A DNA stretch of 64,000 bases from an uncultured Bacteroidales bacterium (GTDB lineage: Bacteria; Bacteroidota; Bacteroidia; Bacteroidales; FEN-979), in assembly GCA_903959905.1 (NCBI GenBank), contig CAJBYO010000029.1, forward strand, positions 78,972 through 142,971. The letters run 5' to 3'. Shown in pieces: positions 21,210-30,246 of this stretch. How positions within the stretch are numbered: the stretch's first letter is position 1; each line of letters begins with the position of its first letter. The position numbers and the translations under genes were made by a program. The notes under the pieces were generated by a model. The model did not search any database. It was not told where the DNA came from and was given only the letters and a program-made list of their open reading frames with translations.

Positions 21210-24200
21210 GTGCCAAAACTACCTTCCATTACGATCACCAATGCCTCTGAGCACAATCTCCGCTCGGTAAGTGTTGAATTTCCCCGGAATCAATTTATTG
21301 TCGTAACCGGTGTGTCCGGCTCAGGGAAGTCGTCGCTGATCTATGATGTATTGTACCGGGAAGCAGAAAGCCGCTACCTTGGTTCTTTTTCATCTTTTGC
21401 CAGGCAATTTATGGGAAAGCTGAAAAAGCCTGATGTGGAGCGGATCGAAGGGCTCTCACCTGCTATTGCGCTGGATCAGCGGGCTCTCATCTCTAATCCG
21501 CGCTCAACGGCCGGCACCATTACCGGGATATATGATGCCCTCAGGCTGTTGTACGCCAGGGTTGGAAAGTTTGCAGCAGGGGATGAACAGAGCCCCATAA
21601 ACCGTAGTTTGTTTTCTTTCAACTCCCCGGAAGGAGCCTGTCCGGCCTGCAAAGGCCTTGGTGTTGAAGATTTCCTGGACCCGGAACTGCTGATTGCCGA
21701 CGGAAACAGGACTTTGCGCGAGGGTGCACTGGTCATCACGGCTCCCAACGGCTATATCATCTATTCGCAGGTCACCCTGGATGTGCTTGACCAGGTTTGC
21801 CGGGCAGAAGGGTTTCATATTGACATCCCGTGGAAGGATCTGACGCCCGAACAGAAACACATTGTCCTCTATGGAAGCGATAAAATTGAGATCCCGTTTG
21901 GCAAGCACCCGCTTGAATCGCGCATGAAATGGAGCGGAATCACCGCAAAGCCGCGTGAACTGGGATACTACAAAGGAATTCTACCTGTGATGGAGGCGAT
22001 CCTGCAGCGTGACCGGAATAAAAATATCCTGCGGTTCGTGCGATCAGGTAAATGCAAGGCATGTGAAGGCAGGCGGCTGAATGACAGAGCCCTATCTGTT
22101 CCCATTGGCGGGTACAACATAGCCGATCTGTCAGCACTCCAGGTGAGTGAGTTACTCCCTGTCCTGCGTTCCATCAGCTTTACCGATGCGGAACAGCAGG
22201 TTGCAATACCCCTGATCAGGCAGATTTCAAAGCTGATTGACTTCATGGTGCGGCTGGGGTTGGGGCATATTTCCACCAACCGCGAATCAACCACCCTTTC
22301 CGGCGGCGAATCACAACGCATGCGGCTTGCCACCCAGGCCGGTATCGGGTTGAGCGGGATGATCTGCATCTTTGATGAGCCTTCCATCGGGCTGCATCCG
22401 CACCAGGTCGGGCAGCTCATCGGTATCCTGAAAGAGATCCGCGACAAAGGCAATACGGTCATCGTGGTGGAACATGACGAAACCTTCCTCCACCATGCCG
22501 ACTGGCTGATCGACATTGGCCCGGGGCCCGGCGTTCACGGCGGTGAAGTGTTGTTCAACGGACCACTGAAATCGGCCATAGACCTGCCGGAAGGGGAGGT
22601 CCTCAAAAGCCGGACCCTTTCATTTCTGCACGGACTGGAACGTATACCCATCCCGGCACAGAGAAGGCCCGGAGCAGGAATGCTCACCATTGAAAAAGCA
22701 TCCGCCAACAATCTCCGTCAAATAGATGTAGGTTTCAAGCTGGAGGCACTGAATGTCGTGACAGGTGTTTCCGGGGCAGGCAAATCAACACTGACCAACC
22801 AAATCCTTGGCGCGTTTTTAAGAAACAAACTGCAAGGGACCAATGAGCCCGTGGGCAAACACGGCATCATTCGGGGGTGGGATGCCATCGGAAAGGTGAT
22901 CACCATTGACCAGTCGCCCATCGGGCGGACGCCGCGAAGCAACCCGGCAACCTATACCGGGCTATTTGATCCTATCCGTGATCTCTTTGCGAAACTGCCC
23001 GATGCCGTAATTCAAGGTTATGACAAAAGCCGATTTTCCTTCAATACAGCCGGAGGCCGTTGTGAAACCTGCGAGGGTGCCGGTTATCAGCAGGTGGGCA
23101 TGCACTTTATGGGAAATGTGGAGGTGCTTTGCGATGTTTGCGAAGGACGCCGGTTTGATGAAAAAACCCTGGAAGTCAGGTTCAGGGACAAAAATATTTC
23201 TGAGGTACTGGAAATGACGGTTTCAGAAGCGCTCGTTTTTTTTACCGGTGAGCCAAAGGTCCTCCGTTATCTTGAAACCCTTGACAGCCTTGGACTTGGA
23301 TATCTCACACTGGGACAGCGGTCATCCACCCTGAGCGGGGGAGAGGCGCAGCGCATCAAACTGGCCACAGAACTGGCGCGCCCTGCATCTGCACATACCC
23401 TGTATATCATGGACGAGCCAACCACCGGGCTGCACATGGCCGATGCCGGCATGCTGCTTGATGCGCTTGGGCGACTGATCGCGGGTGGCCATACCGTGAT
23501 CCTCACGGAACATCATCCTGCATTTATAGCTGCTGCTGATCATATCATTGACCTTGGTCCCGGCGGCGGGAGTGATGGGGGACGGTTGATTTTTTCGGGG
23601 ACACCGGAGGAGATGGTTGGGTGTGAAGGTTCGTTGACGGCATTGGCGTTGGAGGAATATCGAATATTGAATATTGATCAACGAATTTTGAAGTTTTTCC
23701 CTTCGGGAAATACGAACACTATAAAGGAGGATGTTTCTATCTCTCCTTTCAATATTCAAAATTCGTTAATCAATATTCAATATTCCCTTTTTATTTCCCT
23801 GAAAGGCCTCAGCACCCACAACCTGCAAAACATAGATGTTAAAATCCCCCACAACAAAATAACCGTGATAACGGGTGTTTCCGGCAGCGGCAAATCCTCA
23901 CTCGCATTTGATACGATCTTTGCCGAAGGCCAGAACCGTTTCCTGGAGAGTTTTTCTCCCTACGTCAGGTCGCGCATCGGCTTAAAGGAACAGGCTGATT
24001 TTGAAGAAATTACCGGACTCACGCCATCCTTTGCCGTTGACCAGTCAGCCACCGGCCACAACCCAAGGTCTACCGTCGGCACCATGACCGGCATCTACGA
24101 CCACTACCGCCTCCTCTTCTCCCGCATCGGCCGTCACGCGTCACCCGTCACGCGTCACCTGTCATGCGTCACCCGTCACGCGTCACCCGTCACGTCCAGT

Positions 24201-26186
24201 CTCTTCTCCTTCAACCACCAGCACGGCGCCTGCCCCTCCTGCGACGGCCTGGGAAACCAGACCATCTGTAATCCCGCTAAACTCATCACCCATCCCAACA
24301 AGTCATTGTTTGAGGGGGCCATGGACGGTACAAAGACCGGGAAATTCTACGGGGATCCTTATGGACAGTATGTGGCGACACTCAGGGCTGCCGGTCATCA
24401 GCATGGTTTTGACTTCAACCTGCCATGGAATGAACTCACACAGGAGGCGAGGTTGTTTGCCCTGCATGGCAGTGGTGAGCAGGTATATGATGTAACGTGG
24501 CAGTACAAACGCGACGAACGCACCGGGGAACACCATTTTTCCGGACCCTGGAAAGGGTTTGCCAGCCTGGTGATGGAAGAGTACGGCCGCAAGCATGCCG
24601 ACCAGCGAGGCGACCGGATGATGGAACTGCTTGAAACCGTTGCCTGTGATGCATGCCATGGTTCCAGGTTGAAACAGGAAGCGCTGACATACCTGGTGAT
24701 GGGTAAAAATATCGCTGAAGTTTCGTCCCTATCCGTTTCTGCTGCTTTGGATTTTTTCCATTCAGTCCAAAGCGAAGCTGCCACGGCCCTCACGATGGAA
24801 ATCATGCGAAAGCTGGAGTTTTTATCCGGGCTTGGCCTTTCATACCTGACCGTCAACCGTGTTTCATCCACGCTGTCGGGCGGTGAATCGCAGCGCATCC
24901 GGCTGGCCGGGCAACTTGGATCAGGGCTTACCGGTATCACCTATGTGCTGGATGAGCCTACGATTGGCCTCCACCCGAATGATACGGGCAAACTGATGAA
25001 GCTGATCAGGTCGCTGCAGGAGGCAGGTAATACCGTAATCATTGTTGAGCATGACCGCGAGGTGATCCTGGCGGCTGATCATGTGATCGACATCGGCCCC
25101 GGGGCGGGAAAAGAGGGAGGCCGGGTGCTCGCTTCAGGCACACCTTCCGAAATCATGGGAAATACATCGTCAATAACCGGGCCTTATCTTGCCGAAAATG
25201 CCATTTTAATACCAGGGAGAAATGCTGCTGAAACCAATGACAGGAGGGTCAACCGAACACTTTTGCCCGGACTGTCGCTGACGAATGTTCACGCCAACAA
25301 CCTGAAGGGTTTTGACCTGGAGATACCGACAGGGGGGATCATTGCCATTACCGGGGTATCAGGATGCGGGAAATCCACCCTGATGTTTGATGTGATCCTG
25401 TCGTCGTGGGATAATAAAAAGGCCACCGGCTGCGGATCAATTCAAGGGTTTGAACGGTTTCAGCGCATTGTCAGTGTTCACCAGCGTACCGGCTTTAACT
25501 CTTCCCTGGCAACACCCGCCACCTTCACTGGAATATTTGACCAGGTCAGGGAAATTTTTGCATCGCTGCCACAGGCAAGGCAATCAGGGTTCGGGAAGGA
25601 TATGTTTTCCTACCTCAATAAATCGGGGCGTTGCCCGCATTGCGAAGGCACCGGACAGATCAGGATATCCATGGACTTTCTTTCTGACGTCAGGATGAGG
25701 TGTGAACATTGCCAGGGTAATCGGTACCGGCAGGATGTACTATCATGCCTGTACCAGGAGAAAAGTATTGCCGGCGTTTTAGAGATGACAGTATCAGAGG
25801 CAAGACTGTTTTTCAGCAACAACCCGAAGCTATCCGGCCAGTTGCAGATGCTTGAGAAAACCGGACTGGGTTATCTCTGTTTAGGACAGCCGCTTGACAC
25901 CCTGTCCGGTGGCGAATCGCAGCGGCTGGTACTTGCGGCTGAACTGATGAAACCCGGCCGGGGATCAACACTCTATTTGTTTGAGGAGCCGTCAACCGGC
26001 TTGCATTTCAGGGATATTGAATTTTTGCTGACCCTGTTCCATTACCTTGCTGACCAGGGTAACACCCTGCTCATTATTGAGCATGATCCAATGATCATTG
26101 AGCATGCAGACCATGTTATTGAACTTGGCCCTGAGGGGGGTGATCGGGGAGGCTTCCTGGTGTCGTCTTCACCTGTGGGCAAATAA
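21210..26186 (+). CDS. uvrA: Tandem-fused (double) UvrA-like ABC ATPase
   Basis: Four Walker A motifs (GVSGSGKS, GVSGAGKS, GVSGSGKS, GVSGCGKS), four LSGGE signatures, CxxC zinc modules; two repeat insertions. Confidence 0.85.
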   Translation: MPKLPSITITNASEHNLRSVSVEFPRNQFIVVTGVSGSGKSSLIYDVLYREAESRYLGSFSSFARQFMGKLKKPDVERIEGLSPAIALDQRALISNPRSTAGTITGIYDALRLLYARVGKFAAGDEQSPINRSLFSFNSPEGACPACKGLGVEDFLDPELLIADGNRTLREGALVITAPNGYIIYSQVTLDVLDQVCRAEGFHIDIPWKDLTPEQKHIVLYGSDKIEIPFGKHPLESRMKWSGITAKPRELGYYKGILPVMEAILQRDRNKNILRFVRSGKCKACEGRRLNDRALSVPIGGYNIADLSALQVSELLPVLRSISFTDAEQQVAIPLIRQISKLIDFMVRLGLGHISTNRESTTLSGGESQRMRLATQAGIGLSGMICIFDEPSIGLHPHQVGQLIGILKEIRDKGNTVIVVEHDETFLHHADWLIDIGPGPGVHGGEVLFNGPLKSAIDLPEGEVLKSRTLSFLHGLERIPIPAQRRPGAGMLTIEKASANNLRQIDVGFKLEALNVVTGVSGAGKSTLTNQILGAFLRNKLQGTNEPVGKHGIIRGWDAIGKVITIDQSPIGRTPRSNPATYTGLFDPIRDLFAKLPDAVIQGYDKSRFSFNTAGGRCETCEGAGYQQVGMHFMGNVEVLCDVCEGRRFDEKTLEVRFRDKNISEVLEMTVSEALVFFTGEPKVLRYLETLDSLGLGYLTLGQRSSTLSGGEAQRIKLATELARPASAHTLYIMDEPTTGLHMADAGMLLDALGRLIAGGHTVILTEHHPAFIAAADHIIDLGPGGGSDGGRLIFSGTPEEMVGCEGSLTALALEEYRILNIDQRILKFFPSGNTNTIKEDVSISPFNIQNSLINIQYSLFISLKGLSTHNLQNIDVKIPHNKITVITGVSGSGKSSLAFDTIFAEGQNRFLESFSPYVRSRIGLKEQADFEEITGLTPSFAVDQSATGHNPRSTVGTMTGIYDHYRLLFSRIGRHASPVTRHLSCVTRHASPVTSSLFSFNHQHGACPSCDGLGNQTICNPAKLITHPNKSLFEGAMDGTKTGKFYGDPYGQYVATLRAAGHQHGFDFNLPWNELTQEARLFALHGSGEQVYDVTWQYKRDERTGEHHFSGPWKGFASLVMEEYGRKHADQRGDRMMELLETVACDACHGSRLKQEALTYLVMGKNIAEVSSLSVSAALDFFHSVQSEAATALTMEIMRKLEFLSGLGLSYLTVNRVSSTLSGGESQRIRLAGQLGSGLTGITYVLDEPTIGLHPNDTGKLMKLIRSLQEAGNTVIIVEHDREVILAADHVIDIGPGAGKEGGRVLASGTPSEIMGNTSSITGPYLAENAILIPGRNAAETNDRRVNRTLLPGLSLTNVHANNLKGFDLEIPTGGIIAITGVSGCGKSTLMFDVILSSWDNKKATGCGSIQGFERFQRIVSVHQRTGFNSSLATPATFTGIFDQVREIFASLPQARQSGFGKDMFSYLNKSGRCPHCEGTGQIRISMDFLSDVRMRCEHCQGNRYRQDVLSCLYQEKSIAGVLEMTVSEARLFFSNNPKLSGQLQMLEKTGLGYLCLGQPLDTLSGGESQRLVLAAELMKPGRGSTLYLFEEPSTGLHFRDIEFLLTLFHYLADQGNTLLIIEHDPMIIEHADHVIELGPEGGDRGGFLVSSSPVGK
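23655..23786. repeat. Hairpin element, family D (GAATATT-based), in frame in the uvrA inter-half linker
   Basis: 31-bp inverted arms 23662-23692/23755-23785 with 1 mismatch; solo arm at 29007-29044. Confidence 0.92.
24131..24193 (+). repeat. (SCGTCAC)x9 heptamer array in frame inside uvrA
   Basis: 9 x 7 = 63 nt, read as RHASPVTRHLSCVTRHASPVT; reverse complement of the intergenic GTGACGG arrays. Confidence 0.95.
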
Positions 26187-28343: not shown

Positions 28344-29000
28344 ATGGCGCTTGATAAAAATGGAATTGCAAAACGGATTGCGCAGGAGTTGCACGACGGT
28401 TATTACGTGAACCTGGGCATCGGGATACCTACCCTGGTGGCCAATTACATCCCTGAAGGAATGCAGATTGTGCTGCAGTCGGAGAATGGCTTGCTGGGCA
28501 TCGGGCCTTTCCCGGCCAGCGAGGATGTCGACCCAGACCTGATCAATGCAGGCAAGCAGACTATTACGACGGTTCCTGGTGCGGCATTTTTTGATTCATC
28601 TGCCAGTTTTGCCATGATCCGCGGCGGGCATATCGACCTCACGGTGCTGGGAGCCTTTGAAGTATCCGATACCGGCGATATTTCTTCCTGGAAGATCCCG
28701 GGAAAGCTTGTCAAAGGCATGGGAGGCGCCATGGACCTCGTTGCTTCCGCGAAAAACATCATTGTGGCCATGATGCACACCAACCCGCAGGGAGAGTCGA
28801 AACTGCTGAAAAAATGCACCCTGCCCCTTACAGGGGTAGGCGTTGTAAAACGAATTGTGTCTGACCTTGCCGTTATTGACGTTACCCCGGATGGGTTCAA
28901 ACTGATTGAAAGGGCACCGGGCGTATCTGTTCAGGATATCATCAATGCCACAGAAGGGAAGCTGATTGTAGAGGGAGAAATTCCGGAAATTAGTGTATGA
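28344..29000 (+). CDS. scoB: 3-oxoacid CoA-transferase subunit B
   Basis: VNLGIGIPT, catalytic [12 protein letters not shown]. Confidence 0.93.
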
Positions 29001-29006
29001 TTTTTT

Positions 29007-29044
29007 GAATATTGAATATTGAACATTGATCAACGAATTTTGAA
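29007..29044 (+). repeat. Solo arm of the family D element
   Basis: GAATATTGAATATTGAACATTGATCAACGAATTTTGAA, 36/38 identical to 23655-23692. Confidence 0.9.
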
Positions 29045-29088: not shown

Positions 29089-30246
29089 ATGTCACATTAT
29101 TTCACACTCGGCCGGATTCCCCGCAAGCGGCATGTCGTATTCCGCAAGCCTGACGGAGGCCTATATGCGGAACAACTGGTTTCAACGGAAGGGTTTTCAG
29201 ATGCCTATTCCCTTGTTTACCATTGCCATCCGCCTACCATGGTCACAAAAATAGACGCTGCTTATTCAGTGGCCCCGAAAGTAGCCGACCCGAACAACAT
29301 GCAGCACCGCCTTTTCCGCGGTTTTGACGTTGCCCCGGCAGATGATTACCTTGAAAGCCGCATCCCCGTGCTGGTCAACAGCGACTGCCATATCAGCCTG
29401 GCTGCACCCCGAAAGTCAATGACAGATTACTGGTTCAAGAACTCGGGTGCCGATGAGATGATCTTCATCCACCGGGGAGAAGGAACACTACGGACCATGT
29501 ATGGCAATATTCCGTTTTCGTACGGCGACCAGCTCGTTGTTCCCCGCGGCGTTATTTACCAGGTTGAGTTCAATTCAACCGACAACAGGCTTTTTATCGT
29601 TGAATCCTTTGCCCCGCTCAGATTTCCAAAGCGTTATATGAACAAATTCGGACAACTGCTCGAGCATGCGCCATTCTGCGAGCGTGACATCCGCAAGCCC
29701 TCGGAGTTGGAGACCCATGACGAAAAAGGAGATTTCCTGGTTAAAATCAAGCGGGATGACATGATCTGGCCATACCATTTTGCAACGCACCCTTTTGACC
29801 TGGCCGGCTGGGATGGGTATCATTACCCGTATGCCCTCTCTGTCCATGATTTTGAACCGATTACGGGCCGGCTTCATATGCCGCCGCCAATACATCAGAC
29901 CTTTGAAACACCGGCCTTTGTCATGTGTGCTTTTGTCCCGCGATTGTATGATTATCATCCCGATTCCATCCCGACCCCTTACAACCACAGCAATGTTGAC
30001 TCTGATGAAGTGCTTTATTATGTCGACGGCGACTTCATGAGCAGGAACAATATCAAACCGGGCAATATCACCCTTCATCCCATCGGGATTGTGCACGGTC
30101 CCCATCCGGGTGCGGTTGAACGCAGCCTTGGAGCAAAGGAGACCAAAGAACTCGCCCTGATGGTGGATACTTTCAGGCCGTTGAAGATCACGGAACAGGC
30201 GTTTGGGATTGAGGAGCCGGAGTATTACAGGTCGTGGCTGGGGTAG
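29089..30246 (+). CDS. hmgA: Homogentisate 1,2-dioxygenase
   Basis: HPFD..GWDG, H.PPP.HQTF, PYNHSNVDSDE and HGPHPG motifs; operon context. Confidence 0.92.
   Translation: MSHYFTLGRIPRKRHVVFRKPDGGLYAEQLVSTEGFSDAYSLVYHCHPPTMVTKIDAAYSVAPKVADPNNMQHRLFRGFDVAPADDYLESRIPVLVNSDCHISLAAPRKSMTDYWFKNSGADEMIFIHRGEGTLRTMYGNIPFSYGDQLVVPRGVIYQVEFNSTDNRLFIVESFAPLRFPKRYMNKFGQLLEHAPFCERDIRKPSELETHDEKGDFLVKIKRDDMIWPYHFATHPFDLAGWDGYHYPYALSVHDFEPITGRLHMPPPIHQTFETPAFVMCAFVPRLYDYHPDSIPTPYNHSNVDSDEVLYYVDGDFMSRNNIKPGNITLHPIGIVHGPHPGAVERSLGAKETKELALMVDTFRPLKITEQAFGIEEPEYYRSWLG

Follow-up and report, generated by a model that had tools for sequence, protein, structure and literature searches.

The stretch of DNA analysed here, 64,000 nucleotides (nt) of contig CAJBYO010000029.1 from an uncultured Bacteroidales bacterium (hereafter the window), encodes a protein in which two UvrA modules are fused head to tail, and the linker between the modules is encoded by a palindrome whose arms are chains of 7-nt units (heptamers). 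Followed through its orthologues, this linker provides a fixed coding reference: the position of the arrays and the foldback layout outlast the sequence of the units across genera, and the unit sequence changes along with the repertoire of the genome. Probably the linker is a foldback of dispersed heptamer arrays that has long resided in a permissive tether, is translated, has been kept stop-free and is homogenised with a genome-wide family. The original prediction, a note made on the sequence of the window, had likened the element to the Rickettsia palindromic elements (RPEs) and had proposed that it was a tolerated insertion, a structure removed from the RNA, or the event that fused two genes. 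Our analysis confirmed that the palindrome is real and that the RPE analogy holds, and that the inferences of insertion, fusion and excision fail. To our knowledge, in-frame palindromic repeats are textbook material for Rickettsia only, and we know of no explanation for the origin and upkeep of bacterial heptamer repeat families.

The palindrome and its host gene

The gene and the parts of the palindrome are located in the window as follows.

21210-26186, + strand: fused double UvrA gene, an open reading frame (ORF) of 1658 amino acids (aa) with two UvrA-like double ABC ATPase modules
23655-23786, + strand: palindromic element, 132 bp, branched, with an outer stem and two inner hairpins
23655-23692, + strand: 5' arm, heptamer chain GAATATC GAATATT GAATATT GATCAAC GAATTTT GAA, encoding EYRILNIDQRIL
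23693-23754, + strand: loop, 62 nt with the two inner hairpins, encoding KFFPSGNTNTIKEDVSISPF
23693-23713, + strand: inner hairpin 1, TTTCCC-ttc-GGGAAA
23723-23749, + strand: inner hairpin 2, AAAGGAG...CTCCTTT
23755-23785, + strand: 3' arm, reverse complement of the 5' arm with 1 mismatch, encoding NIQNSLINIQYS

The palindrome lies in frame within the double UvrA ORF, as the original prediction had stated; half 1 ends before it (...ALALEEY), and half 2 begins after it (ISLKGLSTHNL, with the THNL motif). The paired parts of the arms (23662-23692 and 23755-23785, 31 nt each) are 97% complementary and 62 nt apart. With up to 3 mismatches allowed, the 31-mer arm matched the window at 3 places, and 100 shuffles yielded no match. 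The fold predicted for the RNA of 23640-23800 has a free energy of -57 kcal/mol (z = -7.7; 0/200 shuffles as stable) and consists of the outer stem and the inner hairpins TTTCCC/GGGAAA and AAAGGAG/CTCCTTT, so that the inverted arms with one mismatch and the two inner hairpins were both recovered as predicted. Tandem Repeats Finder (TRF) reported period-7 arrays in the two arms, at 23655-23677 and 23748-23785. Compared with the genomic copies of the arm family, the window has C at position 23661 in place of the family's T, and an in-frame TGA is thereby removed. A search of the linker against Rfam 15 gave nothing at the gathering score, the top match being a plant miRNA-precursor model (31.5 bits vs 119). 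The palindrome is not an assembly artefact, because an independent assembly (from a run of another study) contains identical pieces over 23250-23679 and 23705-23872 and because orthologues in other metagenome-assembled genomes share the layout. The contigs of four DNA runs stop at the arms, none crossing the whole stretch; they cover both sides, the loop and the 3' arm.

Pfam assigns two stretches each of ABC_tran and UvrA_DNA-bind to the double UvrA. The precomputed Pfam list of the 1658-aa protein lacks the UvrB-interaction domain PF17760, which is present in the longer homologues. A homologue search with residues 640-1000 as the query listed 120 homologues, mostly from Bacteroidota, with SAR324, Rhodothermaceae and Armatimonadia entries at 46-52% identity. 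All but one of those listed (119/120) were at least 1580 aa long (about 1580-2130 aa), the exception being P0035 with 1249 aa; the linkers of the distant fused UvrAs could not be aligned with the present one and do not share its pattern. Since fused homologues are widespread in Bacteroidota and the distant ones have unalignable linkers, the fusion of the two UvrA halves predates the palindrome, and the palindrome was not the event that fused two genes, contrary to what had been proposed. On inspection of the sequence, half 2 has no ATG, GTG or TTG at its head from which it could be started internally, and the AGGAGG-ATG of the loop is out of frame. An AlphaFold2 model of a 267-aa fragment, built with 11 sequences, was poor (mean predicted local distance difference test, pLDDT, 42.9; linker 24-36) and hence uninformative.

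Orthologous linkers and their heptamers

Linker DNA was collected from 14 genome loci and 13 metagenome loci; five duplicates (L030, L031, L035, L038 and L041) were left out, as was L042, in which the anchors are missing, and 22 distinct linkers remained, including that of the window. In-frame stops were absent from 22/22 linkers, and the other two frames were free of stops in 2/22 and 0/22. At the level of sequence, this shows a linker segment that would be translated, its frame kept stop-free by selection; a segment under such selection would not be excised before translation, which contradicts the RNA-level removal that had been proposed. The original prediction had contrasted its insertion with the case of homologues from repeat-free genomes carrying an alignable linker of the same length and sequence. 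Homologues whose linker is alignable and agrees in length and sequence were found, and their genomes are rich in the same repeats, not free of them.

The inverted-repeat score exceeded the maximum of 100 dinucleotide shuffles in 15/22 linkers; thus, for the tolerated in-frame insertion, the tolerance stood and the recency of the insertion did not. The score tied with the shuffle maximum in L008, L010 and L014, and no inverted repeat was scored in L006, L033, L034 and L036. The arms of L006 are non-complementary and the hairpin is missing in L010, L033, L034 and L036, with the reading frame intact in all five. Linker length varied from 87 to 240 nt over the 22 loci and was exactly 135 nt in ten of them (141 nt in the window). 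Eleven linkers (135-141 nt) align without gaps and have invariant GA and TC columns each 7 nt. RNAalifold predicted 25 pairs, both sides of which had changed in 10, and a small inner hairpin, TTTTC-nnnn-GAAAA, the form in which inner hairpin 1 of the window recurs in orthologues.

The arms fall into several heptamer vocabularies. GAATATY arms were found in the window and in L001-L005, L007, L008 and L032; GAATRTC arms in L009 and L011; ACGATTT arms in L012 and L040; CGAATGA arms in L013 and L039; and CCAATKA arms in L014 and L037. The encoded peptides are wholly different between vocabularies (e.g. EYRILN, ELPMAN and EYLFTI). Among the GAATATY-type orthologues, fourfold-degenerate sites in 200 flanking codons were 31-48% identical and the loops matched at 13-31 of 45 positions, and the arms were identical at 20-28 of 28 nt (28/28 for the 3' arm between the window and L005). 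This comparison shows conservation of the arms far beyond the fourfold-site level of the flanks, so that neutral filler alone would be insufficient and either homogenisation or selection on the nucleotides would be needed. Mismatches between the arms, read on the sense strand, comprised 11 G.U and 40 A.C (partly due to the shared stop-avoiding C). The excess of A.C indicates no bias to pairing in the sense mRNA, and is the reverse of what protected pairing would leave. The dispensability of the hairpin is supported by the arms mismatched or lost in 4-7 of the 22 intact genes, by the A.C mismatches and by the distant UvrAs that do not have the pattern.

To relate the linkers to their genomes, 14-mers were counted, forward plus reverse, in the genomes of five of these loci (order: window / L002 / L012 / L013 / L014).

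GAATATTGAATATT: 21 / 16 / 8 / 0 / 1
CGAATGACGAATGA: 46 / 5 / 6 / 63 / 72
ACGATTTACGATTT: 9 / 0 / 245 / 91 / 18
CCAATGRCCAATKR: 1 / 1 / 7 / 25 / 223

Reversed-pattern controls gave 0-1. The heptamer of the linker had the highest of the four counts in the genomes of L002, L012 and L014, and these results showed that the arm sequence follows each genome's own heptamer repertoire, with the qualifications given below for the other two genomes. A recent change can be seen in one group of close relatives. The flanks of L013, L039 and L037 are 91-93% identical at the nucleotide level (76-79% to L014); the arms of L037 are CCAATKA like those of L014, and those of L013 and L039 are CGAATGA, the same base being changed in 3-4 units of both arms. 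The L037 linker, loop included, resembles that of the distant L014 despite its L013/L039-like flanks. Either the linker was recently rewritten in the lineage of L013 and L039, or it was exchanged between lineages.

The arm family in the genome

The source genome (4.93 Mb, 104 contigs, 47% G+C) contains 25 copies of the 31-nt arm core at up to 4 mismatches, and 29 overlapping matches at up to 5 mismatches. The family is an ordered chain of different heptamers, GAATATT GAATATT GATCAAC GAATTTT GAAnTTT GAAG. Among the 25 copies there are only 2 foldbacks of the arm, one in the UvrA linker and one intergenic at C47:109481-109565 (coordinates of this form refer to the source genome), with unrelated loops; by this census the repeated unit is the arm alone, not the full 132-bp palindrome. 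The 17-nt composite core AATATTGAWCAAYGAAT occurs in 15, 13, 10, 14 and 10 copies in five GAATATY-type genomes (controls 0), in agreement with the earlier claim that the arm is dispersed and not derived from protein sequence. The arm was also found in frame in three other genes of the source genome, whose names were assigned by reading the translations, without a family search.

29007-29044 of the window, + strand: solo arm, 36/38 identical (94.7%), with 1 mismatch in the 31-nt core
C33:89802-93617, - strand: PurL, with an in-frame GAATATT-type arm encoding KLQTSKFLDQYSIF
C15:18786-20771, - strand: apolipoprotein N-acyltransferase Lnt, with an in-frame GAATATT-type arm encoding KLQNSKFVVQYSIF
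C100:3903-5027, + strand: MeaB/ArgK-like GTPase, with an in-frame GAATATT-type arm encoding LNIEYRSTNFE

The solo arm is intergenic as predicted, lying within the 88-nt spacer between the co-directional ORFs 28344-29000 and 29089-30246. Orthologous spacers were located by tblastn in five relatives: two have a GAATATY array (in L054 it is the composite arm), two carry arrays of other kinds, and in one the spacer is absent. At the PurL site, the same arm is present in one relative, other arrays in two and a non-repeat insert in one. The N-terminal region of PurL has more heptamer-encoded stretches.

Short tandem arrays are abundant in this genome. At a score of at least 30, TRF reported 2348 non-redundant arrays, including 445 with units of 7 nt, 405 with units of 8 nt and 368 with units of 9 nt. 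Among arrays of period 7, 8, 10 or 11, 39/586 have 100 codons or more of open frame on both sides, and 547 lie outside such long frames. A scan for downstream inverted partners of arrays scoring at least 40, which missed the UvrA foldback itself, found a partner within 400 nt for 63/648 arrays of period 6-11 (5 in the control). This downstream-partner scan, from which the UvrA foldback was also missing, gave no further case within a long ORF.

Roughly 25 of the 63 foldbacks use a 10-nt unit (ATTTTCGCAG / CGCAGATTTT), for example at C13:20224-20268, C15:45649-45693 and C29:203517-203565; these hairpins are a separate, abundant family. Further foldbacks are built from CACAGAGG-type units. At C88:4825-4949, two arm copies stand in direct orientation 94 nt apart in a larger tandem duplication, with a third at C88:4454. 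Long in-frame arrays, flanked on both sides by 100 or more codons of open frame, also encode SPVTRHA-type peptide repeats (GTGACGG, up to 20 units) and RTGGQAD-type repeats (8-mers, up to 16 units), for example at C100:37029-37138, C45:29381-29518, C19:70747-70849 and C33:45186-45314.

The double UvrA itself contains a second array, detected by TRF.

24131-24194, + strand: second heptamer array, in half 2 of UvrA, 9 x CGTCACG in frame, encoding RHASPVTRHLSCVTRHASPVT

This array is direct, with no hairpin, and is flanked by YRLLFSRIG and SSLFSFNH. Orthologues carry varied heptamer arrays at the same site, including the EYRILNNEYR type, and distant homologues have about 8 aa there. By the layout of the E. 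coli UvrA, the site may be the scar of the missing UvrB-binding domain. A Logan contig of run X1 is longer by 14 bases (two units) at 24130, and the frame would thereby be broken; either the length of the array is polymorphic or the array was misassembled.

Upkeep of the foldback and comparison with known systems

The explanation that we regard as probable comprises several steps. The linker between the UvrA modules would be a permissive tether of about 45 residues, which a foldback of the lineage's degenerate, dispersed heptamer arrays may have occupied since before these Bacteroidales genera diverged, and the foldback would be transcribed and translated as part of UvrA. Template switching corrects quasi-palindromes. 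We infer that gene conversion or template switching keeps the arms alike, both to each other and to the roughly 25 genomic copies, and that the hairpin, instead of serving UvrA, arises as a by-product of the foldback layout.

Several observations weigh against this explanation. Neither a gene-conversion tract nor a donor was directly shown, and neutral filler alone would not account for the identical arms. The agreement between linker and genome is a tendency and no rule: in the genome of L013, ACGATTT (91) outnumbers the linker heptamer CGAATGA (63), and in that of the window CGAATGA (46) outnumbers the linker heptamer GAATATT (21). The tree of the flanking 210 aa resolves one clade only, so that independent switches of vocabulary are uncountable. 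The UvrA foldback is unusual even within its own genome, because only 1 of the 63 scanned foldbacks lies in any open frame, and that a short one (83 and 61 codons on either side). A selected structure would also account for the survival of the hairpin through at least four vocabulary states, for the 135-nt length in 10/22 linkers and for the recurrence of the inner hairpin.

Such a structure is the substance of an alternative that we consider possible, though rather unlikely: the hairpin or the arm would be selected as a nucleic-acid signal, either as a translational pause between the UvrA halves or as a binding site for a factor that recognises heptamers, with a role in spacers too. Each heptamer would have its own protein, as has been proposed for proteins of the cold-shock or S1 type. 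The high identity of the arms (20-28/28 nt, against 31-48% at fourfold sites of the flanks), the persistence of the hairpin through several vocabularies at 15/22 loci, the change of both sides in 10/25 predicted pairs, and the recurrence of the conserved inner hairpin and of the 135-nt length are all in its favour, as is the scatter of the 17-nt core through five related genomes (10-15 copies each, controls 0). Solo copies mostly point toward the downstream gene (about 9-10 vs 3-5), a hint from small numbers and crude ORF calls. Binding factors have been proposed for TAACTGA heptamers, in the part of the paper available to us (MacGregor, 2015, PMC4679880). However, the hairpin is mismatched or lost in 4-7/22 orthologues with an intact gene, sense-strand mismatches are 40 A.C against 11 G.U, distant fused UvrAs do not have this linker pattern, no Rfam family matched at threshold, and array foldbacks are frequent in spacers whatever the neighbouring genes.

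A further explanation, which we hold to be improbable, is that heptamer arrays are rewritten in place throughout the genome, reading frames included, by a trans-acting writer or converter or by a co-evolving array-binding factor. It is just as improbable, as a corollary of such rewriting, that the heptamer arrays are something other than passive products of slippage. If rewriting of this kind takes place, its rate, tract length and strand rules could be read from the UvrA linker foldback.

Selection of the linker peptide as protein (say, for a fixed tether length or for self-association), with the repeats as its raw material, is very unlikely. It would agree with the exact 135-nt length in 10/22 loci despite the turnover of sequence, and with a frame that is open in all loci, but the length ranges from 87 to 240 nt over the 22 loci, the peptide is wholly replaced between vocabularies (EYRILN, ELPMAN, EYLFTI), and the nucleotide identity of the arms (20-28/28) is far above that of the flanking fourfold sites (31-48%).

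Highly improbable is the reading that the original prediction had put first, that a mobile palindrome of the RPE, MITE (miniature inverted-repeat transposable element) or REPIN type was recently inserted in this UvrA. Its palindromic layout, the dispersed arm and the second foldback at C47:109481-109565 are what such an element would present; however, it is already contradicted by the occupation of the site in orthologues whose fourfold sites are 31-48% identical, the arm alone is repeated (2 foldbacks among 25 copies, with unrelated loops), a target-site duplication is undefinable, and 0/4 Y1-transposase genes lie near an arm. That the palindrome fused two UvrA genes, or is removed from the RNA to give two proteins or a shorter one, is scarcely credible for all its position exactly at the junction of the halves, as 119/120 listed homologues are fused (including distant entries at 46-52% identity with unalignable linkers), half 2 has no start codon at its head, and the stop-free frame in 22/22 loci argues for read-through translation.

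Whichever process keeps the arms alike, their near-identity next to flanks with 31-48% identity at fourfold sites makes concerted evolution or selection of the repeats measurable at this site. Under the rewriting explanation, the fixed position, the 135-nt length and the joint switching of the two arms would make the linker foldback a natural reporter. For annotation, odd low-complexity peptides in Bacteroidales linkers should be suspected of being encoded by repeats.

Among known proteins, class II UvrAs have been reported from Bacteroidetes (PMC9328131, as far as the available part of the text goes). The present protein resembles them in its UvrA-like halves, each with a DNA-binding domain, and in the absence of PF17760 from its precomputed Pfam list, and differs in that two modules are fused head to tail; the available part of PMC9328131 contains no discussion of a head-to-tail fused UvrA.

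RPEs are described, in the available part of PMC10969869, as dispersed palindromes of about 130-150 bp that lie in frame in housekeeping genes, where permissive sites tolerate them, and are translated into additional peptide (Ogata et al., 2000, 2002). The 132-bp UvrA element falls in the palindromic size class of about 100-150 bp, and the placement in frame in protein-coding genes is shared as well (UvrA itself, and the arm in PurL, Lnt and the MeaB-like GTPase). Thus the in-frame tolerance in the analogy was upheld, and the whole palindrome as the repeated unit was not: here the 31-38-nt arm is the unit and the loop is unique, and there is no family of whole elements with a conserved peptide. 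In addition, the UvrA arms consist of 7-nt units that recur in hundreds of tandem arrays; orthologues in several genera have the site occupied, with the arm sequence replaced in concert; and the host is a free-living freshwater Bacteroidales bacterium, not a Rickettsia. MITEs are recognised by terminal inverted repeats, a target-site duplication and many full-length copies. Inverted arms are present here and the full-length unit is unrepeated; a target-site duplication is undefinable because the orthologous sites are all occupied and there is no empty site.

REPINs are inverted doublets of short repeats mobilised by RAYT transposases (Bertels and Rainey, 2011, PMC3116915; available part). As the available part describes them, they share with the present element two inverted short-repeat copies with a spacer, a hairpin of about 100-130 nt and the occurrence of single copies, whereas here doublets are rare (2 among 25 arm copies) and the arm itself is no short palindrome. 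The REPIN/RAYT reading was rejected: the genome has four PF01797 (Y1 transposase) genes, none with an arm or a GAATATT array within 2 kb.

Long simple sequence repeats (LSSRs) have units of 5-11 nt (Mrazek et al., 2007, as summarised in the available part of PMC4679880). MacGregor (2015, PMC4679880, same part) already recorded heptamers at ORF edges and stops that depend on orientation. In the literature searched, which did not extend to the full text of Mrazek et al. (2007), no earlier description of in-frame heptamer-array foldbacks or of vocabulary turnover at an orthologous site was found. On the same partial source, LSSRs and the present arrays are alike in that one 7-nt unit occurs at many loci, mostly intergenic and sometimes at permissive positions in ORFs. 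The UvrA arms belong with the heptamer LSSRs by their period 7 in TRF, the period-7 columns in 11 orthologues and the 21 genomic matches of GAATATTGAATATT. They differ from them in three respects: a 5-kb ORF contains two degenerate arrays as an inverted pair, the dispersed block is an ordered chain of different units, 31-38 nt long, and the turnover of the vocabulary is documented at a fixed orthologous coding site.

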